DNA from: a virus
Lineage: Duplodnaviria; Heunggongvirae; Uroviricota; Caudoviricetes
Reading direction: 5' to 3' (one strand)
DNA: 45,440 nucleotides
IMG/VR virus record: IMGVR_UViG_2526164690_000022
This document shows positions 654 to 43,822 of this stretch, in pieces (positions within the stretch are counted from its first letter, which is position 1; every line of letters starts with the position of its first letter). Both the position numbers and the translations under genes were made by a program. The notes under the pieces were generated by a model that saw nothing but the letters and a program-made list of their open reading frames with translations, did not search any database and had not been told where the DNA came from.

Positions 654-882
654 GATCCGCCCCGGAAGGCGCGCAGCAGCCGCGTTACGGCCAGAACGAA
701 CAAGCCGGTCAGCGCGAGCGCGGCAACACCCCAATGCTCGCCAAGGAAGGCACCGGCGGTCGTCCCGGCCAGCACGGCGGCGAGAATCGGCAGATGGCAG
801 GGGCAGGTCAACACGGCCAGCGCACCCCACAGGTAGCCGGAAACGGGTTGGCGCGTCTCGGGCGGCAGTTTGTCAGGGGCGT

Positions 883-886
<4 letters not shown>
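650..886 (-). CDS. merE: MerE mercury transport protein (78 aa, GTG start)
   Basis: C-terminal 78 aa of ORF 650..1096: [41 protein letters not shown]...; GTGA overlap with merD stop. Confidence 0.8.
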
Positions 887-3007
<2,121 letters not shown>

Positions 3008-3430
3008 TCACAAGCGCTTGGCGGGGAGTTCGCAGCCGTCCGGTCCGCAACGGCGATGCGCCGGCGACACGAAGTCCCAGATCGACACCCCAATCATCAA
3101 GGCCAGGCCGACGTACATCAGGTTCGCCGTCCACCAGTTGCCGAGCAGCCAGACCGTGGCCGCAAACACGATGGCCGGGCCGATCATGCCGAGCAGACTG
3201 CGCAGCCATTGCCGATGACTGAACCAACCCAGCGCGTTCGCCAGGAAGGCCAGCGCGGCAAACAGCGGCAGCAGGCGGCTGATGAACAGTCCCTCGTACT
3301 GGCTCAAGAAGCCCAGCCCGATGGCCGCGCCGAAGCTGGCGAGGGCTGGAAAGCAGGCGGCGCAGCCCATCGCGGAAACGACGCTGCCGAGCGCGCCGGT
3401 TTTATCGGCAATGCGTGTCATCAGTCCCAT
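3008..3430 (-). CDS. merC: MerC inner-membrane mercury transporter
   Basis: MGLMTRIADKTGALGSVVSAMGCAACFPALASFGAAIGLGF...; presence of merC indicates Tn21-type rather than Tn501-type operon. Confidence 0.8.
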   Translation of the reverse strand: MGLMTRIADKTGALGSVVSAMGCAACFPALASFGAAIGLGFLSQYEGLFISRLLPLFAALAFLANALGWFSHRQWLRSLLGMIGPAIVFAATVWLLGNWWTANLMYVGLALMIGVSIWDFVSPAHRRCGPDGCELPAKRL

Positions 3431-3465
3431 GAAGCGGCTCTCGCTGTTGTCGTTGGCTTGCTGGC

Positions 3466-3741
3466 TCACTGCTTGACGCTGGACGGATAGCCGGCGTCTG
3501 CGGTGGCCTTGGTCAGCTTCTGTACGCTGGCCTTGGTGTCGTCAAAAGTGACGACGGCCTCGCGCTTCTCGAAGCCCACATCGACCTTGCTCACGCCTTC
3601 GGCCTTGGAGAGCGCTTTCTTGACTGTGATCGGGCAGGCGGCGCAAGTCATGCCGGGAACCGCTAGCGTGACGGTCTGGGTAGCGGCCCACACCGGGGCA
3701 ACAGCGGCGGCGAGGGCAAGGGAGGCAAACAGTTTCTTCAT
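3466..3741 (-). CDS. merP: MerP periplasmic mercury-binding protein
   Basis: MKKLFASLALAAAVAPVWA signal peptide followed by the GMTCAACP heavy-metal-binding motif. Confidence 0.85.
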   Translation of the reverse strand: MKKLFASLALAAAVAPVWAATQTVTLAVPGMTCAACPITVKKALSKAEGVSKVDVGFEKREAVVTFDDTKASVQKLTKATADAGYPSSVKQ

Positions 3742-3754
3742 GATGAACTCCTGG

Positions 3755-4106
3755 TTAATAGAAAAATGGAACGACATAGGGAAATCCAAGCGCGACCAGG
3801 ACCAGCACGGCCACGATCCAGAAAATCAGCTTGTAGGTGGCGCGCACCTGCGGAATCGCGCAGACCTCACCTGGCTTGCATGCCTGCACGGGCCGGTAAA
3901 TCCGCTTCCAGGCGAAGAACAGCGCCACTAGCGCCGCGCCGATGAACAACGGTCGATAGGGTTCCAGCACCGTCAGGTTGCCGATCCAAGCACCGGAGAA
4001 GCCCAGGGCGACCAGTACTAGCGGCCCCAGGCAGCAGGTCGATGCAAGAATGGCGGCCAGCCCGCCGGCGAAGAGCGCACCGCGCCCGTTTTTGTGGTTC
4101 AGACAT
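3755..4106 (-). pseudogene. merT: MerT mercury transporter, frameshifted after codon 6
   Basis: MSEPQK then out of frame (ORF 3867..4172); the remainder LEPYRPLFIGAALVALFFAWKRIYRP... is in ORF 3755..3970; one extra A in an A-run. Confidence 0.7.
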
Positions 4107-4177
4107 ACGTTGGCCCTTTTGAATTTGGATTGGATAGCGTAACCTTACTTCCGTACTCATGTACGGAGTCAAGCGAT
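4107..4177. promoter_or_regulatory. mer operator/promoter region between divergent merT and merR
   Basis: Dyad tccgtac-tcat-gtacgga at 4150-4167, the classic MerR operator arrangement. Confidence 0.7.
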
Positions 4178-4612
4178 ATGGAAAATAATTTGGAAAACCT
4201 GACCATTGGCGTTTTTGCCAAGGCGGCCGGGGTCAACGTGGAGACAATCCGCTTCTATCAGCGCAAGGGCCTGTTGCGGGAACCGGACAAGCCTTACGGC
4301 AGCATCCGCCGCTATGGGGAGGCGGACGTGGTTCGGGTGAAATTCGTGAAATCGGCACAGCGGCTGGGGTTCAGTCTGGACGAGATTGCCGAGCTGTTGC
4401 GGCTCGACGATGGCACCCACTGCGAGGAGGCCAGCAGCCTGGCCGAACACAAGCTCAAGGACGTGCGCGAGAAGATGGCCGACTTGGCGCGCATGGAAAC
4501 CGTGCTGTCTGAACTCGTGTGCGCCTGCCATGCACGAAAGGGGAATGTTTCCTGCCCGTTGATCGCGTCACTACAGGGCGAAGCAGGCCTGGCAAGGTCA
4601 GCTATGCCTTAG
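4178..4612 (+). CDS. merR: MerR Hg(II)-responsive transcriptional regulator
   Basis: [33 protein letters not shown]... ending ...[19 protein letters not shown]; the listed ORF starts upstream at 4094 but the canonical start is ATG 4178. Confidence 0.9.
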
Positions 4613-4645
4613 CGTGCTTTATTTTCCGTTTTCTGAGGTGCCCCC
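4608..4645. repeat. 38-bp terminal inverted repeat of the Tn21-family transposon (mer end)
   Basis: cttagcgtgctttattttccgttttctgaggtgccccc is the reverse complement of GGGGGCACCTCAGAAAACGGAAAATAAAGCACGCTAAG; composition changes abruptly after 4645. Confidence 0.85.
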
Positions 4646-5724: not shown

Positions 5725-6223
5725 AGGTTTAACGCCCGCACAACTGGCAGAGCGTAACGCTGAGTATGTAACGGAAATTTCCCGACTTGAGAAAGAGCGC
5801 GCGGCGCTGGCTGCGGAGAATGCGAGACTGAAGGCGATATGTGAGGATCGCCGCACGTTCATTATGAATGGCGTGCAGCTTGGTTTTATCAAGGTGCCAA
5901 CAGTGGAAATAGATCCAGCTCTTGAAACAATTCGTATCGCCCTATCACCACAAAAAACTACTCCTGCGACCGACACTTTCCTGGATGAAGTGAAGACTGA
6001 AGCACGCAAGGAGGGCGCTTACTTTGTGGCGAACAGAATGCTGGCTGCCTGGGTAGCTGGTTTTATTGATGATACTGCGAAGAACGCCGCGGATATTGCC
6101 CGGATGATTCTTACCTCTACTGAGTTTATGGCTAATGCGCCGGAAGGCGATTTTGACCGCTCATTCTCTGATGGCGTTCTCGAAGATATCGCCGAACAGC
6201 TTCGTAAAGGAGTCATCCAGTGA
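5714..6223 (+). CDS. Ea22-like coiled-coil protein (paralog family)
   Basis: Coiled-coil [21 protein letters not shown]; C-terminal domain TPATDTFLDEVKTEARKEG... is paralogous to the C-terminus of 7208..7993. Confidence 0.45.
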   Translation: MKSEGLTPAQLAERNAEYVTEISRLEKERAALAAENARLKAICEDRRTFIMNGVQLGFIKVPTVEIDPALETIRIALSPQKTTPATDTFLDEVKTEARKEGAYFVANRMLAAWVAGFIDDTAKNAADIARMILTSTEFMANAPEGDFDRSFSDGVLEDIAEQLRKGVIQ

Positions 6224-6888: not shown

Positions 6889-7211
6889 TGACCACATCGC
6901 ATTCTGCAATTACCCAGGAAAAAGCCTTCCACATACTCGAACGATTAGAAACGCTCGCTACGGAGGAGAAGATATCCCCGGAGATGCTGGTCGAGTGCAG
7001 CCGTGTGATATTGCGTCGCAAGAACGACATCCCGCGGCTGACATCTGGCGCACCATCCGTATCAGCCAGTCCAACGCTTTATTGCAGCTTCTGTAACAAA
7101 TCCCAGCACACCGTTAAAAAGTTAATTGCCGGGGACAACGTTTTCATCTGCAACGAGTGCGTGAAAGATTGCAACAACATTATCCAGGAAGAGCAAAGGG
7201 AATCAGCATGA
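6885..7211 (+). CDS. ClpX N-terminal zinc-binding-domain (ZBD)-like protein, lacking any AAA+ module
   Basis: C-terminal [39 protein letters not shown] aligns with the ClpX C4 zinc finger ([39 protein letters not shown]). Confidence 0.6.
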
Positions 7212-7993
7212 AATTTTCCAAATTTTCTGAGTTGGTGAATCGTATTTTGTCCAACAACCACAGCCATCGTCGCGATATGGATGTAACGATCGTTGTTCAT
7301 TCGCCTGGTCGCATCGGTTCAACACCATCAGTTGAGGTTCAGTCAATTCAGGTGGGTTTTGATTGGGATGCCGGGCAAGTGATGATTTTTCCAGCACAGC
7401 CACTGACCACGCTAACACCAGAACAGATTACTGATATTACTGATAGTGTGCGCAAAGGTCAGTCCTGGCACGCATATCAGGAATACAAGAAGCATAAAGA
7501 GCAGTTGGAAAAATTATCGATTGAACTTGATGCCGCAAAACAGCGCATTGCAGAGCTGGAGGGTAATTGCGCGGCGCTGGCGGCGGAGAATGCGGGAATA
7601 AAGTCTGCAATTCCAGAATCACGGGATATTGAGGATGACAATGACAATATGGATGACGTATCTCTCGCGGAAGATTTCGGGTTCAATCATGCAATAGAAC
7701 TGATGAGGAGACGGATTCCTGAAACTCCGGCCACCGACGCTTTCCTGGCTGAAGTACGTGCGGAGGCACGCAACGAGGGGATTAACTACACCGCAAGCCG
7801 TCTTGCTGCTGCGTTCAATCACGGATTTATCAATAAGTCTTTGCGTGAAGTTTTCGACGTTACACGCATGATTTTGTCAGCGAAAGAAGAGTTGGCTAAT
7901 GAACCGCATCCGCTTGATGGCCTGTCCGGTGAATATGCGGAGAAATCCCTTGAAGAATGGGCGGAACAGATTCGCAAAGGAAGCAGCCAGTGA
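7208..7993 (+). CDS. Ea22-like coiled-coil protein (paralog)
   Basis: Start [10 protein letters not shown] at the ATGA overlap; [21 protein letters not shown] coiled coil; C-terminal [19 protein letters not shown]... Confidence 0.45.
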
Positions 7994-8486: not shown

Positions 8487-8794
8487 GCACAATTAAAGAA
8501 ATGCCGGTAGAACGTGATGAATATGGCTGCTGGACACATCCGGAGTATGAAAAGTTTTGCGCAGGCCGTGAATATATTTCCACTGAGGAATTTGACGCCT
8601 GGATGAAGGAAAATAATCTTCAGTGGACTATTCGCAGTATGGATGAAGATGATTTTGATCTGGACGCAGCTGGTCCCGATATTGCCGCCTGGGAACCGGA
8701 GCGACCAGAGGGTGAAGGCTGGTTTGTTGGCTCTATTCATGACACTGAAGATGGTCCAGTTTGTATCTGGCTGCGGGAGAAGGTTGCCGCATGA
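8483..8794 (+). CDS. Hypothetical protein
   Basis: ORF translationally coupled (ATGA overlap with the phosphatase start). Confidence 0.4.
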
Positions 8795-9483
8795 TCCAGG
8801 CTATGCATGAAGTGAATTTATATAGCCGTATTGATGGTTCTGGCTACAGAAACATATGGGTTGTTGGTGATCTGCATGGTTGCTACACCAGACTGATGTC
8901 CGAACTCCATCGTGTGGATTTTGACCCGGCGCAGGATTTACTGATATCGGTTGGCGACCTTATCGATCGCGGTACTGAAAATGTCGAATGTCTGGAACTA
9001 TTGCAGATGCCCTGGTTCAGGGCAGTAATGGGGAACCATGAGCGGTTGATGCTTGATGCGTTAAGTCCTGATGGCAACGTGAATAACTGGCTAATGAATG
9101 GCGGACAATGGTTCTTCATGCTGGACACTGATCAGGAAATATTAGCCAAGGCGCTGGTGGAGCTGGTAAAGCGTCTGCCATATATCATTGAGTTGAACAC
9201 CGGGCATGAAACTATCGTTATAGCCCATGCCGACTATCCAGGTGGAGAGTACCAGTTCGGTAAGGATGTGTCGCTTTTTGATGTTGTCTGGTCGCGCAGT
9301 CGCGTCGGTGATTCGATAGATGGCATTGGTGGAGAAATCACAGGCGCAGATCGCTTTATCTTTGGGCACACACCGGTACGAAGACCAAAAGCATACTGGA
9401 ATCAGCACTACATAGACACGGGCGCGGTTTTTTGCGGAAATCTGACGCTAATGCAGGTGAAGGGAGGGCAGCTTAAAGTCTGA
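8791..9483 (+). CDS. Lambda-type serine/threonine protein phosphatase (metallophosphoesterase)
   Basis: [25 protein letters not shown] and GNHE motifs; C-terminal [14 protein letters not shown]; the listed ORF starts at 8761 but the coupled start is ATG 8791. Confidence 0.85.
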
Positions 9484-9580
9484 TCAAATCATTTACGCAC
9501 TCAAAATTTGTTAGAACATTGATTTTAGTTTTCTAACATATTATTTTACCGCTCGGAACAAAACAGAGTCGGTATACATT

Positions 9581-10576
9581 ATGAGTGCAATAATCACACC
9601 TCATTTCGTAAACGGAGCTGGTGTGGCTGTCTTTCCGGTAGACAAGCCCACCAGTAACTACATTGGCGCAGGTCGCCGTTTCATTATCTCCCCACTTCCG
9701 CGTGAACAGGCTGAAAACACGCCAGATGGCGTAGTGGATCTGAATTATTCGCTGGTTGCCAACCAGTCTCTGAAACCGTTTTTTCAAAGCGAGCGCGTAT
9801 TTAACGCGTTGGGCGGTGAAGATTCGCTTGTTCATTGGGTAAGTTCCAATATCCACGATTGCCAGGCGCACGATAAGCGCGATTGCAGCCACCAGCTAAC
9901 CACTCATTTCTATAACGGCTCTGCCGTTCGCCTGTGCTGGAAGCATGATGCGGAATACATGATGAAGGGGTACAGCAAGTTGGACGACCAGTTATCCCTG
10001 AATCGTGCCAACTGGGTTATGAACTGGGCTGCGAGCGAGTTAAAACTACCGCCAGAACGCGATCTGAGCATGGTTGAACTCACTTTTTGGGCCATTCGCC
10101 GGAATCTGAAAGATGAGCTACCAGATGAAGCCGGTCGCATTGCATTTTGTCAGCCAAAAACTGAAATCCCTACCGGTACGCTGAAAGAATCAGATATCAC
10201 CTGGGAGCACAGTACCCGCGAGCTGGTGGACATAACCGCAGAGCAGATCGTCAACCTGTCTGTAGATGAGGATTCCGGCCTGCTTTATATGCGCCGACCA
10301 AAAGCGGTCCTCGGTAAAAGCCCGGCTTATCTCCGGTTTGTGGTTTCTCGTCCGTGCATCGGATGCGGTGGCAAAGTTAACCACCCGTTCATGTACCGCG
10401 CCCGCTCGTTAAACGAACACGACCGCTGGGCTGTTCCTCTTTGCGATGACTGCGCCAGAAGCGCAGAAAACGATGTCCGGGCATGGGAAAAAGCACATGG
10501 CATACGCCTTTACGTAGCCGCTAACCAGCTTTTTGACTTCGCCATCGAGCGCGGAGTGATCACTTTCAATAACTGA
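9581..10576 (+). CDS. DUF968-family prophage protein
   Basis: C-terminal Cys cluster CIGCGGKVNHPF...AVPLCDDCARSAEND typical of DUF968 as I recall it. Confidence 0.5.
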   Translation: MSAIITPHFVNGAGVAVFPVDKPTSNYIGAGRRFIISPLPREQAENTPDGVVDLNYSLVANQSLKPFFQSERVFNALGGEDSLVHWVSSNIHDCQAHDKRDCSHQLTTHFYNGSAVRLCWKHDAEYMMKGYSKLDDQLSLNRANWVMNWAASELKLPPERDLSMVELTFWAIRRNLKDELPDEAGRIAFCQPKTEIPTGTLKESDITWEHSTRELVDITAEQIVNLSVDEDSGLLYMRRPKAVLGKSPAYLRFVVSRPCIGCGGKVNHPFMYRARSLNEHDRWAVPLCDDCARSAENDVRAWEKAHGIRLYVAANQLFDFAIERGVITFNN

Positions 10577-10580
10577 TGAG

Positions 10581-11273
10581 GTGGATCAAAAAATGAAAGA
10601 ACGCGGGATGATTTTTAACGATGAGATGGTCAGGGCCATCCTCGAAGGAAGGAAGACGCAGACTCGCCGACCTGTAAAAAATGTCAGGGCCGATAACTGC
10701 CTGGTTATCCGTAAACCGACAAAGAAACGCAATGGTGTCTATACCCACGTTATGGATGCACCTGAACATGGTTTATGCCCGTTCGGTAACGTTGGTGATC
10801 GCATATGGGTCCGTGAGGCGTGGGCGATATTAGGCAATGAGGATGGTTGCAGTGTGGACTGGAACGACAACCTTTGTCGTGGCGATGAGAAGAACGCAGC
10901 AAGGATTTATCGGGCCAGTTGTGAGCAAAAGCCGGGTGATTACGGCTTGTGGTCGATACCCGATGATGCCGACTGGAAACCTCACACTGTGAATGAAAAA
11001 TTTGATGGCGGGTGGCGTCCATCAATTCACATGCCGCGCTGGGCATCGCGCATTTTGCTGGAAATTACCGACGTGCGTGTGGAACGGCTGCGTGATATGA
11101 GCGAGGCAGATGCTAAAGCAGAAGGCGCATCTCCGGCGATGTACAAAATTACGCCGCCGGAAGCTGTTTATCGCGTTGGTTTTGGTGATATCTGGCGCAG
11201 TATTTACGGGCAGGATAACTGGCTATCTAACCCGTGGGTATGGGTAATCGAGTTTAAGCGCATTCAGGAATAA
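10581..11273 (+). CDS. Hypothetical prophage protein, possibly ASCH-like
   Basis: N-terminal MIFNDEMVRAILEGRKTQTRR resembles the ASCH GxKxxExR signature; weak. Confidence 0.4.
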   Translation: MDQKMKERGMIFNDEMVRAILEGRKTQTRRPVKNVRADNCLVIRKPTKKRNGVYTHVMDAPEHGLCPFGNVGDRIWVREAWAILGNEDGCSVDWNDNLCRGDEKNAARIYRASCEQKPGDYGLWSIPDDADWKPHTVNEKFDGGWRPSIHMPRWASRILLEITDVRVERLRDMSEADAKAEGASPAMYKITPPEAVYRVGFGDIWRSIYGQDNWLSNPWVWVIEFKRIQE

Positions 11274-11356
11274 ACCGTGAGTATGCATCAAATCGTCAGT
11301 TTTTCAGGTGGACGAGCATCGGCCTGTCTCGTTCATCTGTTCGAAGAGGTAGTGGC

Positions 11357-11560
11357 ATGACAATCGTAAAAACCCATACCGGCACCGTGATCACCAAAGA
11401 CGGTCCGCAGGTAAAAAAACTGCACCAAACAGAGCGGATGTGGGTCGTCGGCAAAAATGAGTTTTACCACAAAGATACCGGACGCCGCCACTTTGCAGAA
11501 AATACGCGCCGTCGACTGCTGTTAGACACCATCAAGCCTATCGAGGTGAAGCATGTTTAA
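11357..11560 (+). CDS. Hypothetical small protein
   Basis: ORF only. Confidence 0.3.
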   Translation: MTIVKTHTGTVITKDGPQVKKLHQTERMWVVGKNEFYHKDTGRRHFAENTRRRLLLDTIKPIEVKHV

Positions 11561-11801
11561 ACAGAACGAAAAAGCTATCGCTCAAATTGCTGATTATATC
11601 CCGCGTGCGTGCCGGGGTATGCAGTTGCAGGAAGCCAAAGCGCGCCTGGAGAAAAAAATTGCGCTCTATATTGATGACGGCTGTGATGCTGCCGTTCTTA
11701 ACGCGGCGTTCGCACCAGCTCTTAACAGTCATACTCGGGAGTCTTTTTTTCGTGCATCGAAGCGCAACTCCGCAAAGGAGGCAACCAGTGAGCCAGATTG
11801 A
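11553..11801 (+). CDS. Hypothetical small protein
   Basis: ORF only; overlaps the start of the next gene. Confidence 0.3.
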   Translation: MFKQNEKAIAQIADYIPRACRGMQLQEAKARLEKKIALYIDDGCDAAVLNAAFAPALNSHTRESFFRASKRNSAKEATSEPD

Positions 11802-19551: not shown

Positions 19552-19624
19552 AGCACCCTCCGAAATAGGCGAGGGTACTTTACAGCAAAGATAACAATCT
19601 AAAAAGATGTGTTAGAAATTTAAT

Positions 19625-20653
19625 TTATGAATCCATCAGGCGGCTATTAGCCCCCACAGACACGCCGCCACGGCGCAGATACCGCATAAGTGTTTCCGGT
19701 TTCTTCCAGGTTCCTTCCTGCATGATCTCCACCATAGACACCTGCTTTTCTGCCATATCGATAGCAGCCCCGACACGAGCACTATGCCCGGTCCACGTCC
19801 GGTATCTCCCCTTGTTTGGAGTGGCATCTCTTTTATTCAGCAACACCCAGGCGTCACTAAATATTTTCTCCATTGCAGGTGCAGTAAGGGGCGTTGTCGT
19901 AATCCTGGCCTTATTGCTACGGTGTATCGGCGGGAACAGCACCGCGTCAGGATGTTCACGAAGCCCGGAAACATCCAGCCAGTCATTCAGCACAGCAGTA
20001 GTGCGACGGGAAAGCACCTTATCAAGCCCGGCGGCGGTCGTTATTGTCTTCGTGTGTGAAATATGTAGCGTGACAGTGTCACCTGTTTGGTCCAGATCTC
20101 CTACACGAATACGCGAGATTTCAGACATGCGCATCAGCGTATTGTATGCAACAAAGAGAAAAGCCCGGTTGCGCAGGTCCACCAGCCGTTCTGACCTGGA
20201 CAACAGGACGTCGAGCAGTTTCAGATCGTCCCACCGCAGCGGTATAGCCTGGCCTGTTCGTTCGCCTTTTTCCGTTGCCGCTTCACGCCGGATGCGCCGC
20301 ATAGCCAGAGAAACACTTTTATCATCCGAAAGTGGCGGAAGGCCACAATGCGAAAGCAGCATGTTCAGCATGGCGTAGTGCTTATCAATGGTGGTCGAAG
20401 CCAGATCAGCATCATGCAGCTGAAGAAAATACTCGCGGGCCATCTCTGGAGAGATCGGGAACCAGGCGAGCTGGCGAGCGTGACACCATCTCGCCCAGGA
20501 GTGAAACACTAACCGGAGATCGCGCAAAGTATTAGGCGCGTAAGCCCCCTGGTCATTCATGAACCGCATAAAGTTTTCTGCGGCCTCCTGGTACTCTTTG
20601 CCAATGTTGCGCAGAAAACCACTGGAGCTGCCAGAGATAATTAATTCACTCAT
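19625..20653 (-). CDS. Cre-like tyrosine site-specific recombinase
   Basis: Aligns with P1 Cre along its length: LNMLLSHCGLPPLSDDKSVSLAMRRIRRE; AFLFVAYNTLMRMSEISRIRVGDL; WTGHSARVGAAIDMA...VSMVEIMQEGTWKKPETLMRYLR (catalytic Tyr near the C-terminus). Confidence 0.85.
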   Translation of the reverse strand: MSELIISGSSSGFLRNIGKEYQEAAENFMRFMNDQGAYAPNTLRDLRLVFHSWARWCHARQLAWFPISPEMAREYFLQLHDADLASTTIDKHYAMLNMLLSHCGLPPLSDDKSVSLAMRRIRREAATEKGERTGQAIPLRWDDLKLLDVLLSRSERLVDLRNRAFLFVAYNTLMRMSEISRIRVGDLDQTGDTVTLHISHTKTITTAAGLDKVLSRRTTAVLNDWLDVSGLREHPDAVLFPPIHRSNKARITTTPLTAPAMEKIFSDAWVLLNKRDATPNKGRYRTWTGHSARVGAAIDMAEKQVSMVEIMQEGTWKKPETLMRYLRRGGVSVGANSRLMDS

Positions 20654-20804
20654 GAAACTATTTAACCTCTATATACAGATGACGCTACGCGAAAAATATA
20701 AAAATGACAGGGTAGCTATAAGTTAATTTTCAAGATTCAAACCTTTGATTCGAGGCACGTATTTTCAGTGATGTCAACACTGATCATCCACCCATGATTA
20801 TAGC

Positions 20805-20838
20805 TTAACTTTAAATAATGCCAATTATTTAAAGTTAT
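20805..20838. promoter_or_regulatory. lox-like recombination site (13-8-13)
   Basis: ttaactttaaata-atgccaat-tatttaaagttat; arms are inverted repeats (12/13); right arm matches loxP TATACGAAGTTAT at 10/13; about 150 bp upstream of the cre-like gene. Confidence 0.7.
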
Positions 20839-21020
20839 AAAATGGCGATTTTTTTTAATCCATCACAGATTGATTGCTGACCAGTAACACGTTGCCTTCA
20901 TGGTCTTTAATTTGCGAAGCGTGGTTTATACAGTTGGTTTTCTAAAATTGATGACAAAAAATCACAGTTCGATCCTTTACTCACTCTGTTATTCGACATA
21001 AATTTGTCATAGTAATTTTA

Positions 21021-21034
21021 TGTTAGAAAACTAA
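21021..21034. promoter_or_regulatory. Operator-like motif tgttagaaaactaa about 15 bp upstream of the 21049 gene
   Basis: Member of a dispersed motif family (see findings); a second half-site-like copy ttttctaaaa lies at 20939-20948. Confidence 0.4.
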
Positions 21035-21048
21035 ATCGAGTAGGAATA

Positions 21049-22086
21049 ATGAGTAAGAAGTCGATCGAGAAAGAGTACAAACGGTTCCTGCAAACCGCTG
21101 AACGGTGGAAAGAGCTGGTGGTCGCAAACTCTGTTTTCCATGATACCAGTTATGCTGGCGAGGAATTCCGCCATGTTGCATTAACGCATGACCAAAACAT
21201 ATTAGAAGAAGCTGAAAAATGTCTTGCTGAATGGAAAGCCTTCGTTGACATGTGCCGCGATGCCGACGGCAAAGCGTCGAACATTGTTGAGTCTGTATAT
21301 TCTCCGATCCCATTCATCATTGAGGACACCAATCAAAGCACGCATGTTGTTGTGCAAAGCGCTACAACAACACGTACATTTACACGTGAACAATTGCTCA
21401 AAAAATACGACAAAATCATAAAGAAAAGCCTGAAAAATAGGGTTTTTTCTCAAATCGTAGGTGCTCTTGAAGAAGAACAGCGCTTCTTTGAAGCTGAGCC
21501 TGAAGGCGAGATCTACCGGGCGCGTAAAGAGGCATATACAGATGTTGTGCTGACAACAAACATCGAAGGCAGCAATGCCCTTTCTCGCTTTAGAGTTGGC
21601 GCACATGGCGCATTGGTTTTCGCAAGACTACCGAAGACAACAATCCCCGTTGTCAATAATGTTGGTGAGCGCCGGAGCATTACAATTTATTCTGGCGTCG
21701 AATCGGTACCTTGCAGCCTTCTCGGCGATTTTAACTTATATCGTGTTCGTGACCTGGAAAAACACCAGCCAAGCTACGTTGCGAAGTCGTACATCTTAAG
21801 GAACATCGATATTCGCAATGAAAGCCTTAAGCAGAAATCCGCTAAGATGCTGGAGGATGCCGATCCGGCTATTCGCCATATCATTGAGCGTAAGATACGT
21901 ACATCACGTGAAGCAATGGCAAGGCTGGATAAAATGGATCTGGAATTGTTAGACGTAATGATGGCCTCTGGAGACGACCTGACCGGCATTAAACTGAATG
22001 AAGCTCGTAAAAAATACGGCAAAGCAATCGAAGAACGTTACGGATACACATTCCCCCAAACGCAGTACGCCGCGAAGCTCTGGTAA
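21049..22086 (+). CDS. Hypothetical protein in the immC position (candidate C1-type immunity repressor)
   Basis: 345-aa ORF between the lox site and pacB, convergent with pacB, operator-like motif at its promoter; no sequence motif recognised. Confidence 0.45.
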   Translation: MSKKSIEKEYKRFLQTAERWKELVVANSVFHDTSYAGEEFRHVALTHDQNILEEAEKCLAEWKAFVDMCRDADGKASNIVESVYSPIPFIIEDTNQSTHVVVQSATTTRTFTREQLLKKYDKIIKKSLKNRVFSQIVGALEEEQRFFEAEPEGEIYRARKEAYTDVVLTTNIEGSNALSRFRVGAHGALVFARLPKTTIPVVNNVGERRSITIYSGVESVPCSLLGDFNLYRVRDLEKHQPSYVAKSYILRNIDIRNESLKQKSAKMLEDADPAIRHIIERKIRTSREAMARLDKMDLELLDVMMASGDDLTGIKLNEARKKYGKAIEERYGYTFPQTQYAAKLW

Positions 22087-22094
22087 TCACAACC

Positions 22095-22113
22095 GGCCCC
22101 GCATCGCGGGGCT
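22095..22113. terminator. Hairpin terminator between convergent genes
   Basis: ccccgc-atc-gcgggg followed by cttt; between the 21049 gene and pacB. Confidence 0.5.
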
Positions 22114-23622
22114 TTATATATCCAGATCCGGCATTTCGATATCCGCCAGAACCTGATCTCGGAAAGTTGCCATTTCGGCACCAATATCTTCATTAGCAGG
22201 CACATAGTCCACCAGCATAGTGAAGCAGTAGGTATCCCATCGGTCAGGCGATTTGATGTTTAGCTTTTGCCGCATGTGCTCTTTGCGCATCATCGCCATT
22301 TTCCCTTCTTCATTCAGTAAAAAGGGGATTTTTGACGCTTGCTCTGCCGTTTTAGGGTCACTGTCTATCCGCATACGCCCTGACTTTATGGCATCACGCG
22401 CCATAATATTTGCGTAGGCACGCTGATTAACAAATCGCTCCCTGTCTTTGTTCGCAAACATGGGTTTTCCCCACCGAATACGTACCGGGTTCGCACCACG
22501 ACGCACCAACTGCGCACACGTATCAGAACCAAAACCATCAGCATCAACCGCGATTGTTATATTCGGGTATTTTTCCGGCGTACATTCGTTATATATGAAG
22601 TCAGCAAAGGCCAATGGGTCCATAGTGCCAGGCATCTCCATTACCTTAAAGTTAACAACGCGCCGCTTATCCCTGTGACCAGATACTTTGCAGATGTTGA
22701 GGACCGACTTATCTCGCCCATTACCAACGTCAGCCGTTGCCACCCATCCCCAGTTTTTCTCCAACAACACCTTGCGGCGAGCAGCGCGATCGCATTCATC
22801 ACGACCAAGCAAATAGCCGTTAATTTCTCGTGGGAACTGACCAAGCACCTTGACCATGTACTCAATAGAATCGCGCCCGCCATATTCCAGAAGCTTCTGC
22901 TTGATGAATTGTGGTGTGACGAACGGTGATTCTTCCGAGTTAAGAACAATTGCTGTCCAGATCCCTTTCGGGTTGTCTGGGGTTTTTGCTTGAGAATGGT
23001 GCGAATCGTAGAAATAACCACTTGGCCTTGTTGGCTGGGATAGCATCAACATCCGGTTATCTTCTTCAGTAAGAGCACCGGTCATTACGCCGATCGCCTT
23101 ATCAGATATACCAGATGCTTCGTCCAGAATTAGAAGCAAATGTGCCGCGTGTTCCCCCGCCAGCGCTTCTTCGTTGCCGAGTCGATAACCTTTGCAGAGA
23201 ACTTCCCAAATCCCCTTACGGGAGCGCTCATAAAACATGGTGTCAGAGAGGACAAAATAGGTCTGCAACCACCCATGACGCTTAACTGCATTCGCCCAAT
23301 ACTGTTTAACGTATTTGAATACGCCTGTTTTTACCTGGCCTATCTTGTTAGCAACAATGATGACACGGGCATCGGGGAACAGGATCATAAAAATCAACAG
23401 CAACATCGCGGTAAGGGACGACTTCCCCGTTCCGTGTCCGGACGTGACGGTCGTCCTACTCCCCGTTTCCTGCACTGACTGAATGATCTGCTGCTGCTGG
23501 TGGGAGGGGAACATCCCAAAAATATCGACAACAGCCTGGGTAAAGTTGTAGCGGTATTTGATTACCATATCGCGCCAGCGTGGATCGCTGGTGACGCATT
23601 TAATCTTGCGCCCGCCAGCCAT
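22114..23622 (-). CDS. pacB: Terminase large subunit PacB-like
   Basis: Walker A TVTSGHGTGKSS near the N-terminus; 502 aa; directly downstream of pacA. Confidence 0.8.
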   Translation of the reverse strand: MAGGRKIKCVTSDPRWRDMVIKYRYNFTQAVVDIFGMFPSHQQQQIIQSVQETGSRTTVTSGHGTGKSSLTAMLLLIFMILFPDARVIIVANKIGQVKTGVFKYVKQYWANAVKRHGWLQTYFVLSDTMFYERSRKGIWEVLCKGYRLGNEEALAGEHAAHLLLILDEASGISDKAIGVMTGALTEEDNRMLMLSQPTRPSGYFYDSHHSQAKTPDNPKGIWTAIVLNSEESPFVTPQFIKQKLLEYGGRDSIEYMVKVLGQFPREINGYLLGRDECDRAARRKVLLEKNWGWVATADVGNGRDKSVLNICKVSGHRDKRRVVNFKVMEMPGTMDPLAFADFIYNECTPEKYPNITIAVDADGFGSDTCAQLVRRGANPVRIRWGKPMFANKDRERFVNQRAYANIMARDAIKSGRMRIDSDPKTAEQASKIPFLLNEEGKMAMMRKEHMRQKLNIKSPDRWDTYCFTMLVDYVPANEDIGAEMATFRDQVLADIEMPDLDI

Positions 23623-25375: not shown

Positions 25376-25483
25376 TAATCCCCCGGGCAGGAAATGACCG
25401 AGGGGATGATAATGAGAATGTTAAAACTGTATAGACTGGTAAAAAGATGATTATATTAGAAAATTAATATTAAATACCTAACG

Positions 25484-26905: not shown

Positions 26906-26981
26906 TGGTGGCCCCTACCGGACTTGAACCGGTGACCGTGCGATTATGAGTCGCCAGCTCTAACCACTGAGCTAAAGGGCC
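26906..26981 (-). tRNA. tRNA with CAU anticodon, ileX-like (tRNA-Ile2 lysidine type; Met by anticodon alone)
   Basis: GGCCCTTTAGCTCAGTGGTTAGAGCTGGCGACTCATAATCGCACGGTCACCGGTTCAAGTCCGGTAGGGGCCACCA; full cloverleaf; close to E. coli ileX as recalled. Confidence 0.8.
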
Positions 26982-27135
26982 AGATTACTGTTAATTCCGC
27001 TTACGCTTTTTGCCAGGACCGCGTAAGGCTTTTGCTGCTTGCTCGACCCCATATGCAACCACCAGCAGAAATAAAAATGTCCACCAAGGGTTCTTGTCGG
27101 CAAACGTCCAAAATTCCATCATGTTATCTATTTGG

Positions 27136-27963
27136 TTATTTCACCGGAACAAACGGAACAGCGGTATTACTGGTCATATACTGCGGTAGCGTTCCGTTCC
27201 ATTTGTTGATCGCTTCCAACTCCATAACGCCGGGGTTCTGGCGCAGAGCCTCACCGCGTAAACGAATGGCATCAGCTTCAGCCTGGGCTTTTGTGCGAAT
27301 GGCATCGGCCTGTCCAGCAGCTTCTGCGCGCAGCATGTTGGCTTCTGCTTCGCGTTGCTTGACTTCCTGCTCGCGTTGCAGAGTTTTCTGGTTCGCCGTG
27401 ACTTTGGCATTAATGCTGTCGATAACGGTTGGCGGGTACTCCGGCTTGCCCACATATGAGAGGCTCATTACCTGAATACCGATGGGCGTCATTTCTTCCT
27501 GAATGTCTTTAAGGGCTGCATCAAGCAATTCAGATTTGCCACCGTCGATAAATTTGTCGGTGGTCATTTTGCTGGCTAACCGGTTCAGAGCATCTGCAAC
27601 CTTCTGGCGTAGATCGGTATCAGTAATATCATCTACACCTTTGCGATAGGTCTGAAATACCGTTGTGACTTTTGCTGGATCAACCTTGTAGGCTACGCCG
27701 ATGTGGTAACCAATGGTTGTTCCGTCGCTCATCTGGAAGCTGAACGGCTCGTCGTATGTCTTCATTTGCTTAAAGGTCGGGAAGATATAAACTTCAGTAT
27801 TCAAGCCTGTCCAGTAGCGACCAACGCCAACTACTTCACCGATACCTTTATCATCCCCCAGCTTATTTACTTTGATCCCTACGTTACCTGGCTCTACCCG
27901 ATCGCATCCGGTCAGACATAAAGAACCAAAAATAATCGCTGCACTAATCAACGTTTTTTTCAT
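27136..27963 (-). CDS. plp: SPFH/Band-7 family lipoprotein (plp-like)
   Basis: Lipoprotein signal MKKTLISAAIIFGSLCLTGC; SPFH-type body with Ala/Gln/Glu-rich coiled-coil tail. Confidence 0.65.
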   Translation of the reverse strand: MKKTLISAAIIFGSLCLTGCDRVEPGNVGIKVNKLGDDKGIGEVVGVGRYWTGLNTEVYIFPTFKQMKTYDEPFSFQMSDGTTIGYHIGVAYKVDPAKVTTVFQTYRKGVDDITDTDLRQKVADALNRLASKMTTDKFIDGGKSELLDAALKDIQEEMTPIGIQVMSLSYVGKPEYPPTVIDSINAKVTANQKTLQREQEVKQREAEANMLRAEAAGQADAIRTKAQAEADAIRLRGEALRQNPGVMELEAINKWNGTLPQYMTSNTAVPFVPVK

Positions 27964-28180
27964 TAATCAATTTCCTGGTTTTTTCACGAAAAAAGACTAC
28001 TGCAAAAGCCGGGTAAATGAGCGCGAGAAGGACTCCCAACAATACAAGTATTGTGCTGTCAGATGAGATCATATTTGGCAAAAGCCAAACATACAGAACC
28101 AGTGACACAATCAAACAGAGGACGACATAAATATATAACCGCACCCATAGCGTTCGACATTTGTTCGGATTGTTCTGCAT
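27944..28180 (-). CDS. Small membrane protein (upl-like)
   Basis: Two predicted TM helices (VVLCLIVSLVLYVWLL; LVLLGVLLALIYPAFAVVFF); overlaps plp start. Confidence 0.45.
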   Translation of the reverse strand: MQNNPNKCRTLWVRLYIYVVLCLIVSLVLYVWLLPNMISSDSTILVLLGVLLALIYPAFAVVFFREKTRKLINEKNVD

Positions 28181-28323
28181 CCTCTCACTCCATTATTTAC
28201 CGAATAAAAAAGCTGCGGTGCCTGGTGCCTCCAGGTGACGTTAACCAGTTAACAATTAACGCCGGGATGTTTGACTTAACCACTAAGGAGGATTGTTTTA
28301 ACTGTTCCGCGTGCGCTTAGCCG

Positions 28324-28882
28324 CATTCACCGCAATGGTAAGAGCACTTGGCTGGCTGGGCGGCGATGACGCCTGTACGCATTTGGTGATCCGGTTCTGC
28401 TTCCGGCATTCGCTTAATTAGCCAAATACTCTTAACGTTGCACTGGCGGAGAGTAATGGAATCGAACCATCATCGCTTGCGCAATGGGACGGTTTTCAAG
28501 ACCGCTTGAGCACCATGCTCCCTACTCTCCAGTGATTGTGATGGTCGGTGCTGAACTCCGACACAGGGTTGTAGCAAGCCCCGCAAAGCGCGCACTACTG
28601 TAGTTGCGGCACATCAGCCTGTGCATTCACCACAATGTTGAGAACACTGGTTGTCACGCTGCAACGCAACATTTATTCATAGATTGGGATATGACCCCGT
28701 TACGCCAGTGTTCTCAACGTTGTGGTGCCGGTTACGGTTCCGGCCAGGCCTCTTCCTCAACGGGGTGTTCTCCATACGGACTACCGTTTATTGGTCGTTC
28801 CTGCGGTTTATGTTGTGAAGCCAGATGCTTATCTTCTGGTTGCTTCAAAGAGCTGCACTTCATCACAACGGTAAGAGCACTC
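28324..28882. repeat. Family of ~23-bp repeats flanking the tRNA genes (four clear copies)
   Basis: caccgcaatggtaagagcacttgg (28326), caccacaatgttgagaacactgg (28628), inverted copy ccagtgttctcaacgttgtggtg (28706), catcacaacggtaagagcactcg (28860); degenerate fifth copy near 26676. Confidence 0.55.
28444..28530 (-). tRNA. tRNA-Ser (UGA), class II with long variable arm; atypical D-arm
   Basis: GGAGAGT...GCGGTCTTGAAAACCGT...GGTTCGATTCCATTACTCTCCGCCA; anticodon stem-loop matches E. coli serT as recalled; D-loop short. Confidence 0.6.
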
Positions 28883-28932
28883 GATGCATTTAAGCCAAGC
28901 CCCATAAGGGAGAATGCCCTTACCTGTTGTGT

Positions 28933-29008
28933 TGGTGCCGGTTAACGGACTCGAACCGCTGACATCCTGCTTACAAGGCAGGCGCTCTACCAACTGAGCT
29001 AAACCGGC
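28933..29008 (-). tRNA. tRNA-Thr (UGU)
   Basis: GCCGGTTTAGCTCAGTTGGTAGAGCGCCTGCCTTGTAAGCAGGATGTCAGCGGTTCGAGTCCGTTAACCGGCACCA; perfect acceptor stem. Confidence 0.85.
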
Positions 29009-29012
29009 AATT

Positions 29013-29099
29013 TGGTGGGGAGTGATGGAGTCGAACCACCCGAGTCGCAATGACAGTAGATTTACAGTCTACCCCGCTACCCCTACGGACTAACTCCCC
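29013..29099 (-). tRNA. tRNA-Tyr (GUA), class II
   Basis: Acceptor GGGGAGT/ACTCCCC; anticodon arm GTAGA-CTGTAAA-TCTAC; long variable arm; GGTTCGACTCC T-loop. Confidence 0.75.
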
Positions 29100-29104
29100 T
29101 AAAT

Positions 29105-29181
29105 TGGCGATGGTGGGTGGATTCGAACCACCGACCGACAGCTTAGAAGGCTGCTGCTCTATCCTACTGAGCTACACCATC
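29105..29181 (-). tRNA. tRNA-Arg (UCU)
   Basis: GATGGTGTAGCTCAGTAGGATAGAGCAGCAGCCTTCTAAGCTGTCGGTCGGTGGTTCGAATCCACCCACCATCGCCA. Confidence 0.85.
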
Positions 29182-30415
29182 ACTTGCCGGGTACGTCTCC
29201 GGCGAGGGCTTCCACCTCCGTATGCTTTTCGGCGCACCGCGCCCTGGCTGCAATTCGGTAACAGGGGATGCACAACCCTGGCTTCCAGCGTGATTAGCGC
29301 CTTCAGCATGACGGGATATACCCGTAGTAGGATGTTATCCCAGAAAGCCATTAATCAATGGCTGTTACGCGGGAGGGACGTAACAGGTAAGGGCGCTGAC
29401 CAGAAAGACCTGACCCTTCTCATTCATCTGGTTAATCACACCAGCGCCCTTGCCTGTTATGCCTCCCCGTTCCCTAATACACAGACGGGGACACTCTGCG
29501 GTCGATTTTTTGACGGGGGACGACTCATACCCCGTGGCGTCTGGCTTCTTAGGCCGCTACCATCATCAGATCATCGTTTGCATTTACTTTAATGGTCGGT
29601 TTCTAAACCGCCGCAAAGTCGCTAACCATGACGAAAACCCTAAAAAAGCCCACCCGAAGATGGGCAAATACGCTACATCTCACACAAGAAAGAAGCCGAC
29701 TGCCTGAGCTGGATTCACTTTCAAATGCCCGCAGAAAGGGATCACAAGTCGGCTTCTTTCTTGATGCGGCACTCTCTCCGCCCGTCACCGCTCTGTCTCG
29801 GTTGTCGCGTTTGCCACGCCAGCCGTAACGAGGTTTAAAGTCTTTACACGTTTCCATCACTCGACTGCCGTCTGTGGCTGTTCGTTGCAGCGGGGGTGCC
29901 TCCCCCTGGGGATATCCCCGGCCTTACCCCATTCTTTCAAGACACAATGCAAGACCACATCCGCATAGGTGCATTACCGCAACATTAAGGAGACTCAGGG
30001 CAAAAGGTAACCGCCACAAAAATCCCTATGCCTCCTTAATGTTGAAGATGTGCATTGATGATTAGATGCAGCATGTACCGTTACTCTCTGCCGGACCATC
30101 ATCAATGAACACCTTAAAAAGACCTTCCGTGGCTCAACATGTATTGTCGTTTACTCCGCAAAGTGCTCTCTCTGAAACCACTTTCCGCACTAAACCTGCT
30201 GAACTTTGGCCTGCACGGTGCCAAAGCGTGCTCTTGCATTACCATACTTTTCTAACACTTTAATTTGTTAAATGCTGGTGGGCGAACAATAACCAATAAG
30301 TGACTATCAAGCCCAGCAAGCGAAACGTGGGTACTGCCCACCAGCAAGGAAAATTCTATGTTAAGTTATCTCCACAATCAATACATTCGAATTGTGATTT
30401 TAGATTTCTAACACA
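29182..30415 (-). ncRNA. ORF-free, hairpin-rich region at the 5' side of the tRNA operon (candidate structured leader / stable RNAs)
   Basis: No credible ORF over 1.2 kb; several long perfect inverted repeats with 40-50-nt loops (e.g. 17-bp stem 29685-29701/29748-29764); operator-like motifs at 30250 and 30406. Confidence 0.3.
30250..30274. promoter_or_regulatory. Operator-like inverted pair ttctaaca-N8-tgttaaat
   Basis: Member of the dispersed TTCTAACA family; upstream (minus-strand sense) of the non-coding region and tRNA cluster. Confidence 0.35.
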
Positions 30416-31624
30416 TTATTTCCCATAAAGATCTTCTACACCCCCATTCTTCTTATCCCATTCGTTCGCCCATACCCGGCAAGCGTCAATGATTTCCTGA
30501 CGACGATCTCCTTGCATGAACGGGATGCTTTCATGGAAACAGCTTGGAATGCAGGCCACACTGAATACAGTATCAAACTCCGTCTGCTTGATTGCCTCCA
30601 GCGTCTCCGGACGCATTTTTAATTCATCGATTGGCGCATCCTTAGAGTCCATAATCCGGCGATATAAGCGCGGAAAATCCGTCTCCAGGTACGCCATAAT
30701 TTTATCTGCGAGACATTCGTCTATGTCGGTATTCCAGTCCTTTTCGAAGCCCGGCAGGCGATAGTAAAGCGGCGTTCCCCATACCGATGGGATCACATCC
30801 ATCGTTAACAGGCGATTGGTTCTGATTTGTTGATGGTAATTAGCCGTCAACAGTGCTTCGCCACGCTGCCCTGTTTCCGTAACCAGGCCGTGCGGATACT
30901 CATGGATGTAGGCAATGGCATCCCTTCCATCATACATGAGTGGAAATGTCTCTGGTCTTTGTCCCATGCCACAAGCACGGTTCAGATCGTGACCAAGCTG
31001 TGAGCACTCTCGCTTTAATGTTTCGATAATGCTCTGCGCTGTAGCCAACTTTTTACGCAGTGTGACGCCTTCGCCTTGATAATCAATGCATTGCTGATTG
31101 AGCTTGGTTAAACGCTCTTTTAGTTCCCGGCGCTCTCTTTTCAGCGCGCGGTTATCCTTCTCCGCAACATCCAGCCGCTTTGTCAGGCTGGGCGGATAGT
31201 CTTTTTTGTAACGGTTCAAATCGGCTTCGGCAGATTTACGCAGTGTATTTGCCTGTTCAAGACGCGCTTCCAGATTGCCGATCTCATTACGCATATTCGC
31301 GGCAAATTGATTAACTGCATCACCCAGGCTTTCAACTGTCGCTGATACGCCTGTGACTTGTGAAAAACGGATCAAGCCATCATTAACGGCTTGTTGGTAT
31401 TCCTCAAACTGATCCACCAGCTTATTGTAATCAACTGCCCCATCATCAAGCAGCTTGTTGATTTCCGCCACTAGGTTATCTGTAGTGGCAATGACACTCT
31501 CGTGCAGTCGCTTTGACAGGTCATCACCCGGATTCCGTTTCTGTATAAGAGCGATTTGTGTGCGCAGCGTTTCAATTGCTGTCGAGATAATTTCCAGATT
31601 AGAAGTATCAGTGTGTTGACTCAT
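30416..31624 (-). CDS. Hypothetical protein with N-terminal coiled coil and C-terminal globular domain
   Basis: ATG 31624 (MSQHTDTS); the listed ORF extends to GTG 31639; heptad-rich N-terminal half; no known motif. Confidence 0.45.
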   Translation of the reverse strand: MSQHTDTSNLEIISTAIETLRTQIALIQKRNPGDDLSKRLHESVIATTDNLVAEINKLLDDGAVDYNKLVDQFEEYQQAVNDGLIRFSQVTGVSATVESLGDAVNQFAANMRNEIGNLEARLEQANTLRKSAEADLNRYKKDYPPSLTKRLDVAEKDNRALKRERRELKERLTKLNQQCIDYQGEGVTLRKKLATAQSIIETLKRECSQLGHDLNRACGMGQRPETFPLMYDGRDAIAYIHEYPHGLVTETGQRGEALLTANYHQQIRTNRLLTMDVIPSVWGTPLYYRLPGFEKDWNTDIDECLADKIMAYLETDFPRLYRRIMDSKDAPIDELKMRPETLEAIKQTEFDTVFSVACIPSCFHESIPFMQGDRRQEIIDACRVWANEWDKKNGGVEDLYGK

Positions 31625-31649
31625 TGCTGTTCCCGTCACTTTGTTAAAT

Positions 31650-31672
31650 TAGTTTTCTAACATATTTTATTA
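31650..31672. promoter_or_regulatory. Operator-like motif tgttaaattagttttctaacata upstream of the 30416..31624 gene
   Basis: Contains TTCTAACA preceded by an inverted TGTTAAA half-site, 27 nt from the start codon. Confidence 0.4.
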
Positions 31673-32557: not shown

Positions 32558-32878
32558 CCAGTCCAGGACGCGAACCTGCTCGTAATGCTCATGGTTCCTT
32601 TTGATTAGATCTGGGTTTTTCTCCAGTTCTCTAAGAGCTGCGGCATGTGGGGATGTTTCAGAATATTCACTGCGACGCCTTCTCTTTCGCGCTATTTTCT
32701 AACACACCCATTGATAGTAAATATGCGAAATAATAACAACAACGTTAGATTTGTAAAACAAGAGAGATACTACTCAAGGATGGTCTATATGCAACAGGTC
32801 GGATTTGCTTTTAGAGTAAAGAGTGACCTTAATCAACAAGGAGGGTAAATCGCATGGCATTTACCCAACCTGTTATTT

Positions 32879-33139
32879 TTAAAGGGTTATTTTATCCTGT
32901 TCGGATAATTCTTTGATTGTCTTGTCGATTGCGATCAACCAACCTTCATAGGTTAAATCATCAACAAGTTCTACCAACTTATCATCGGTGTGAGGAAAGT
33001 ATATCCAGCTCCAGTTCGCAGGGTTTTCTGCTTTTCGCAGCGTAAAAACCTTCTTGTATCGGTGGAACTCAAGGATATACCCCTTCGATATGGAATATTC
33101 CTTTAGGTCTTCGACCGTAAACCTACGATTCTTTCGCAT
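32879..33139 (-). CDS. Hypothetical small protein
   Basis: 86-aa ORF coupled to the upstream gene. Confidence 0.35.
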   Translation of the reverse strand: MRKNRRFTVEDLKEYSISKGYILEFHRYKKVFTLRKAENPANWSWIYFPHTDDKLVELVDDLTYEGWLIAIDKTIKELSEQDKITL

Positions 33140-42247: not shown

Positions 42248-42299
42248 AGTTACGGCCTCACTAACAGGTTTAACAACCTGCTACCCGCTGTCAAACAGG

Positions 42300-42470
42300 T
42301 GGCAGGACGTGACAGGGTTGACAGACTGGCGTTAGTGAAACCAGCAGGCCGAAGCCTCCCCATCACGCCCCACCATAATTCGGGCGTAACGCGGTTTACG
42401 GACACAAAAATACCGCAATATCGGAAATCTGCGGTTGTCCGCACTAACATTCAGGCTGTCAAACCTGGTC
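42300..42470 (-). ncRNA. c4: c4-like antisense RNA locus with a1/b1 and a2/b2 target repeats (immI)
   Basis: Minus strand: ttgacagc + gttagtg upstream (a1/b1), complements tcactaac + ctgtcaa (b'/a') at 42318-42342, then ttgacagc and gttagtgagg (a2/b2, the icd RBS); UUCG hairpin aggc-ttcg-gcct. Confidence 0.45.
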
Positions 42471-42577
42471 GCAGAATTTGCTACGACGGCATGAATATAA
42501 GCCTGAAAACATGGAAGATCAACTAAAAATTTCAGCAATGGATGACTTCAGTCGATGATGCAGATCATACATTCCGA

Positions 42578-42606
42578 TTTAGAAACAGCAAATTAATTTT
42601 CTAACA
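42578..42606. promoter_or_regulatory. Operator-like site at the head of the c4-icd-ant operon (Op51-like position)
   Basis: tttagaaaca-N11-ttctaaca; TTCTAACA family member upstream of the immI-like operon. Confidence 0.4.
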
Positions 42607-42660
42607 CAAATTATCGAGCGAGCATTTTCCGATCATTGGGATGCTTTGTAGACACACAGG

Positions 42661-43716: not shown

Positions 43717-43822
43717 TGGCAGTCGCTACCGGAGCAGTGACCGCGATCCTACTCGATCCCATCCACCAGGATCAACAGTGTATATAAATACACTATGTTA
43801 GAAATTTAACTTAACAAGGCGG

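Follow-up and report, generated by a model that had tools for sequence, protein, structure and literature searches.

The question raised by this locus is which gene occupies the immC position, where phage P1 carries its c1 gene, and which sites in the genome its product would read. In the window, which is the whole stretch of 45,440 nucleotides that was analysed, an ORF of 345 aa was found at 21049..22086 on the + strand, with an ATG start and AGGA placed 4-7 nt 5′ of the ATG. It was found to be followed by a GC-rich hairpin terminator (22095..22113, + strand; hairpin search), which separates the convergent stops of this gene and of the pacB homologue (22114..23622, − strand; ORF map). On its left side the immC interval is bounded by the 32-bp rox site for Dre at 20806..20837 (no strand assigned; sequence and D6 records), preceded by the Cre-like recombinase gene dre (19625..20653, − strand; ORF map and D6 records). 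The rox-to-c1 interval was found to contain no + strand ORF of at least 40 aa, only ORFs of 23-33 aa, and the same interval in the P1 annotation contains c1, coi, imcB and imcA. The preliminary description had placed a single 345-aa gene between the lox-type site and pacB, convergent with pacB, and had given the P1 interval from pacB to loxP as carrying c1, coi and imc; the coordinates and the ORF map agree with the first statement, and the P1 annotation with the second. The order cre-like / lox-like / c1 / pacB / pacA / lpa places the gene in a conserved position, which extends from pacB to the lox-type site, is convergent with pacB, is shared with P1/P7 c1 and is characteristic of the C1 family. 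A near-consensus sigma-70 promoter (TTGGCA-16-TATAAT, 11/12 matches) was also present at 20797-20824 on the − strand, mostly within rox and directed at dre.

The region was found to be 98.4-99.1% identical at the DNA level to Escherichia phage D6 (AY753669, MF356679), and the 345-aa product matched AAV84948.1 and ASR76322.1, the D6 c1 'phage repressor protein', at 100% identity. The D6 records label this protein 'c1: phage repressor protein; similar to the C1 repressor of phage P1' and 'prophage repressor', and the c1 locus was found in 139 plasmid records from E. coli, Salmonella and Shigella under the labels 'phage repressor protein' or 'hypothetical protein'. This is thus a known gene that has a name, and the gene call itself adds nothing to the two GenBank D6 records, both of which annotate it as a repressor. 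The word 'unrecognised' in the preliminary description does not hold, as the databases recognise the protein as D6 c1, PF27008 and PHROG 1678. The positions 1-4644, 5824-6197, 7194-7977, 10579-11776 and 26988-28213 of the window were without a megablast match to the D6 genome, and the window therefore comes from a D6-like variant whose accessory modules have been replaced.

The gene is very probably the c1 of a D6-type phage-plasmid, a divergent member of the P1/P7 C1 family whose product would be the master repressor that shuts off lytic functions; the feature was assigned as a D6-type C1 prophage repressor from its identity to D6 C1, the hhalign comparison with P1 C1, PF27008 and phrog_1678. 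The master-repressor reading, with the dispersed motif as the predicted target, is well supported in silico by the homology to P1 C1, by the c1 annotation in both D6 records and by the presence of motif copies in the promoter regions of c1, lpa, repL and c4-icd-ant. The preliminary interpretation thus stands where it named the protein as the best candidate for the master repressor, on the strength of the P1 C1 homology, the annotation and the operator positions, and falls where it suggested a new family. Two elements of the analysis may be new, namely the predicted Tus-like fold of C1-type repressors and an explicit consensus for the D6-type operators, together with the regulon mapped from it.

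The 10-mer motif was found 13 times in the window at up to one mismatch, against 2.87 ± 1.59 matches expected, and none of 100 dinucleotide shuffles reached 13, which bears out the earlier claim of a dispersed motif. When the 10-mer matches were aligned, the motif grew to about 19 bp and proved asymmetric; in the P1 operator orientation it is AATTAGTTTTCTAACAYA, and the core within these 19-bp operator-like sites was TTTCTAAC. The window contained nine strong copies (23-31 bits), every one of them intergenic. The complete D6 genome contained 15 strong sites, each in an annotated intergenic gap, and the additional ones were located upstream of ref, hrdC-dmt, simB and orf52.

The motif scan placed a predicted bivalent operator upstream of a pdcB-like gene, where two inverted copies were found at 9506-9524 (− strand) and 9523-9541 (+ strand) with their cores 20 bp apart, followed by a predicted operator at 19607..19625 (− strand) between the dre stop and the orf117-orf116-dut operon. 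A predicted operator at 25451..25469 (− strand) was found upstream of lpa, at −94..−76 from the ATG, followed by one at the pmgS 3′ end (30398..30416, + strand), at the head of a non-coding stretch of 1.2 kb, and another directly upstream of pmgS (31647..31665, + strand). The promoter scan placed a promoter-like site, TTGATT-17-TAGAAT, beside the operator at the pmgS 3′ end (30381..30353, − strand). The a1b1-c4-icd-ant (immI-like) operon, which contains matches to the Rfam C4 and c4-a1b1 models, was preceded by a predicted operator at 42591..42609 (+ strand), and another was found at 43793..43811 (− strand) in the gap upstream of repL, the gene for lytic replication. Two more exact TTTTCTAACA cores with poor flanks were present at 30248-30257, in the non-coding stretch, and at 32695-32704, inside pmgM near its start (D6 coordinates).

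The control region of c1 was found to contain a strong proximal operator and a weaker distal one. The proximal predicted operator (21018..21036, − strand, 29.4 bits) occupies the nucleotides 13-31 before the ATG and has the core TGTTAGAAAA at 21021-21030 on the + strand, 18 nt before the ATG. The distal predicted operator (20932..20950, + strand, 11.1 bits) contained the core TTTTCTAAAA at 20938-20947, which is the motif inverted, with one mismatch, 83 bp upstream of the proximal copy. The motif reported earlier at about 15 bp before the start and the half-site reported about 80 bp upstream were both confirmed by these positions. The search for a c1 promoter gave no strong sigma-70 consensus, and the best candidate was TTTACT-17-TAAATT (20976..21004, + strand; promoter scan), with 8/12 matches. 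Given the geometry of this candidate promoter, the proximal operator would lie at about +8..+26 of the c1 transcript. The site at 21018..21036 is a probable autoregulation site, and autoregulation of c1, possibly aided by looping to the distal site, would fit the operator position.

The same arrangement was found in two relatives, L007 and L008, which are metagenomic phage-plasmid contigs with C1 proteins 52% and 44% identical to the window protein, respectively. Both were found to retain the order cre-like / rox-like / c1 / pacB / pacA / lpa, with TGTTAGAAAA present 15-25 nt before the c1 start and an inverted perfect TTTTCTAACA about 85-110 nt upstream. The candidate c1 promoter recurred in L007, where the hexamers, the 17-nt spacer and the 14-nt distance to the operator were all unchanged in otherwise different surrounding sequence. 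The rox site of L007 was identical to D6 rox. L008 contained a Dre homologue at 8544-9572 with only 64% identity to Dre, and a variant rox-like site, TAACTTTAGATAACTCCCATTATCTAAAGTTA, at about 9726-9757 beside its gene; the two are a candidate heterospecific recombinase/site pair.

The predicted operators were found to correspond to those of P1 in position and in sequence type. P1 C1 is reported to bind 22 dispersed asymmetric 17-bp operators with the consensus ATTGCTCTAATAAATTT and to control RepL and Lpa (PMC8546580). The sites in the window matched P1 Olpa, Oc4 and Oc1 in position, and a further one was located upstream of repL, which is C1-controlled in P1. The P1 Olpa lies at −87..−71 from the lpa ATG, and the lpa site of the window, described above, has the same orientation. 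The Rfam search placed the C4 antisense RNA at 42295-42380 and its a1/b1 target at 42448-42500, immediately downstream of the site at 42591, which occupies a place equivalent to that of the P1 C1 operator Oc4 (Op51). The D6 motif and the P1 operator were found to have a CTAA core and AT-rich flanks in common, and in both systems the operators are dispersed, asymmetric sites of 17-19 bp, upstream of c1, lpa, the c4 operon and repL, with some of them bivalent. The two differ in that the D6-type operator is TTTTCTAACA whereas that of P1 is TGCTCTAATA, and in that five operators are present at c1 in P1, compared with one strong and one weak operator in the D6-type element. With operators of different sequence, the D6-type element is probably heteroimmune with P1.

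The correspondence also bears on the possibility that the gene is a C1 homologue while the TTTTCTAACA motif is read by a host protein or by an antirepressor-linked regulator, or serves as a promoter element, with the true operators elsewhere. C1 binding rests here on predicted sites, several of which do not overlap a recognisable sigma-70 promoter, and the motif is AT-rich like promoter regions, which would suit such a reading. It is nevertheless improbable, as the copies stand at the places of the annotated P1 C1 operators and share core and flanks with them, one copy of the pair at 9506..9541 being 14/17 identical to the P1 operator consensus (3 mismatches). A set of P1-type operators was also lacking in the window, where the search at up to 3 mismatches gave 1 match, itself a D6-type site. 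The region around c4 was found to be 97.3% identical to P1 up to 42507, where the similarity stops just short of the operator; such a break would be expected from a joint exchange of c1 and operator specificity, and it likewise argues for C1 as the reader of the motif. P1 and D6 offer a natural comparison in which operators have been swapped at orthologous promoters, and the explicit D6-type consensus with its regulon map predicts the heteroimmunity with P1 and supplies targets for the engineering of D6-like phage-plasmids.

The c4 antisense-RNA region at 42250-42507 was 97.3% identical to P1 and only 91.9% identical to D6. The element therefore seems to combine a P1-type immI (c4) with a D6-type immC in a mosaic immunity.

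The relation of the protein to P1 C1 was found to be remote in pairwise comparison and clear between profiles. BLASTP of the D6-type C1 against P1 C1 gave 21% identity over 240 aa with a pairwise E of 2e-8. The hhalign comparison of a D6-type profile (nine proteins) with a P1-type profile (ten proteins) gave a probability of 97.1% and an E of 4.8e-11 over 230 columns, with the D6 C1 residues 7-241 in register with the P1 C1 residues 8-246. PHROG 1678 was common to the window protein and P1 C1 (E 2.6e-140 for P1 C1), and the precomputed PF27008 (Phage_P7_repressor_C1) assignment was present on both the D6-type and the P1-type clades. The NCBIfam model phage_rep_C1 (NF041318) aligned with aa 7-240 of the window protein at an E of 8.9e-6 and 25.4 bits; as the equivalog cutoff of this model is 500 bits, the protein belongs to a distinct subfamily and is not an equivalog of P1 C1. 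An exhaustive HMMER search with the D6-type profile among 1.84 billion representative proteins retrieved 83 relatives, including the P1-type P0025 at an E of 4.6e-6, and these relatives span a continuum of intermediates linking the two clades. The closest ones, of about 345-380 aa, matched the full profile, and most of the others, of 250-285 aa, matched only the positions of about 5-245. This length pattern therefore points to a conserved core of about 240 aa, homologous between the D6-type and P1/P7 proteins, and an extra C-terminal domain of about 110 aa in the D6-type clade.

It had been suggested that the 345-aa protein could found a new repressor family, which would be one unrelated to P1 C1. 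The window protein and P1 C1 both gave 0 matches in the local Pfam-A copy, which is older than PF27008, and among 50,697 phage records tblastn of the window protein (E<=10) matched D6 alone; these two results explain why nothing familiar was seen at the first reading, and together with the 21% identity and the C-terminal 110 aa that lack a P1 C1 counterpart they are what favours a new family. The profile comparison proposed at that time as a check gave homology to the P1 C1 core, and at the level of the core domain the proposal is already refuted by it; the shared PHROG, the PF27008 assignment on both clades, the phage_rep_C1 alignment and the retrieval of P0025 stand against it as well, and we regard it as highly improbable. 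The window protein is better described as a divergent subfamily of the C1 family.

The predicted fold of this subfamily was found to resemble that of Tus. An AlphaFold model built with nine sequences had a moderate pLDDT of 78.8, and an AF2 model built with the family-wide alignment of 88 sequences had a pLDDT of 94.7 and a pTM of 0.80. With the latter, the structure prediction that the preliminary description had also proposed yielded a confident model, for which Tus was the sole significant structural match. The independent method Foldseek gave only four matches at E<=0.001, all of them Tus-Ter structures (E 5.4e-8 to 1.5e-6, probability 1.00), followed by a next-best match at an E of 0.2. 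The core (aa 1-232) of the predicted model was Tus-like and, as modelled, had the Tus fold. The global TM-scores of the C1 model against Tus were only 0.34-0.43, and these modest values would fit a different domain angle and the presence of the extra C-terminal domain. The invariant residues of C1 include R41, P86/P88, R159 and G187.

At the level of sequence the resemblance was faint. The hhalign comparison of the family profile with Tus, whose alignment (at least 81% identity) is too narrow for a stringent test between profiles, gave a probability of 15-17% with C1 55-196 aligned to Tus 117-268. Among 24,736 Pfam models searched at E<=10, PF05472 'Ter' was the one matched by the most family members, namely 2 of 88, sub-threshold, with a best E of 0.012. 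The Tus HMM aligned many C1 members in one register, with Tus at about 178-244 against C1 at about 105-172. Neither the D6-type profile nor the deep profile matched any PDB sequence at E<=10, the window protein had no Pfam match to the Ter profile PF05472, and no significant sequence similarity was found between it and E. coli Tus (PF05472; PDB 1ECR, 4XR0-2). No Pfam HTH family matched at E<=1, and no HTH protein was present among the structural matches. A shared fold of C1 and Tus is probable from the models, and homology of the two is unproven.

The asymmetry of the P1 operators is documented (PMC8546580), and no paper linking C1 with Tus was found in the literature searched. A Tus-like core would, if confirmed, explain how a repressor family that lacks an HTH reads asymmetric sites, and would make C1 repressors the first relatives of Tus with a role other than replication termination. 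Tus is said, after work by Kamada et al. in 1996, to bind its asymmetric site as a monomer via interdomain beta-strands, and P1 C1 was reportedly described as a monomer, the form in which it binds, by Dreiseikelmann et al. in 1988. To our knowledge, DNA recognition by the P1/P7/D6 C1 family has never been explained structurally. We lean slightly towards a reading in which the C1 family is a remote relative of Tus or shares its fold, a Tus-type interdomain beta-strand clamp reads the operators, and the D6-type C-terminal domain replaces Lxc/Coi.

Tus differs in its role, as it arrests forks in a polar manner and D6-type C1 would repress promoters at many sites, and it lacks the additional C-terminal helical domain. 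That the Tus-like protein acts mainly as a polar barrier to replication forks or helicases, not as a transcription repressor, is suggested by Tus being the only significant structural match and by sites as asymmetric as Ter sites, but it is most unlikely, since the 15 strong D6 sites are interspersed on both strands (8 on +, 7 on −) and show no Ter-like opposed arrangement or orientation, every strong site lies in a promoter-bearing intergenic gap upstream of early or regulatory genes, and repression by the homologue P1 C1 has been established by experiment (PMC8546580).

As a promoter repressor, the C1 protein would use a Tus-like alpha/beta core, not an HTH, to bind each of the asymmetric sites, and its binding would occlude promoters and thereby hold the element as a plasmid prophage. 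It would autoregulate at the proximal operator just past its own promoter, possibly looping to the inverted distal site, and the C-terminal helical domain of the D6-type protein would serve self-association or antirepressor docking. By analogy, the role would be the same as that of lambda CI-type proteins, namely a master repressor that keeps lysogeny, autoregulates and defines immunity. The lambda CI-type differs in its clustered palindromic operators, in contrast to asymmetric single sites scattered over the genome in the D6-type system, and the D6-type C1 model contains neither an HTH in the DNA-binding core nor a LexA/S24 autocleavage domain.

In P1, Coi is an antirepressor encoded upstream of c1, and Lxc is a corepressor of C1. 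Neither the window nor the D6 genome yielded more than chance-level tblastn matches to P1 Coi, Lxc, ImcA and ImcB, and Lxc was likewise not detected according to PMC6799933. The D6-type element thus differs from P1 in having no coi, imcA or imcB upstream of c1 and no detectable lxc, and with Coi and Lxc missing its regulatory circuit differs from that of P1. An 86-aa ORF (32879..33139, − strand) was found directly downstream of ulx, in the position of lxc in P1. Its identification as Lxc was rejected, as no BLASTP alignment was obtained and it belongs to PHROG 6844 versus 2160 for Lxc; it could be an analogue of Lxc in function without being homologous to it.

The C-terminal domain (aa 233-345, about 110 aa) was found to be without a counterpart in P1 C1 and to be conserved across the D6-type clade. 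In the AF2 model it was predicted with high confidence to contain two long antiparallel helices followed by a small three-helix unit, and its structural matches were generic helical bundles only. It was rejected as a fused Lxc or Coi, as it shows no similarity to either. The domain probably serves self-association, for paired or looped operators, or antirepressor docking, and it may compensate for the absent Lxc and Coi.

The window was further found to contain five tRNA genes (Met, Ser-UGA, Thr, Tyr and Arg-UCU) at 26906-29181, all on the − strand (ARAGORN and Rfam). The D6 GenBank record contains three tRNAs (Ser, Thr and Asn) on the + strand; either that record is in error as to strand and identity, or the two clusters are not the same.

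The cluster was followed by the non-coding stretch of 1.2 kb at 29182-30415, which contained no convincing ORF and is unannotated in D6. Its first 487 nt were about 91% identical to the 'dicF-like region' of P1 and matched 137 phage records, and only sub-threshold matches were obtained for the stretch in Rfam. A C1-type operator and a promoter-like site were present at its upstream end, followed by terminator-like hairpins within. The stretch probably represents a non-coding RNA region that is conserved and controlled by C1.
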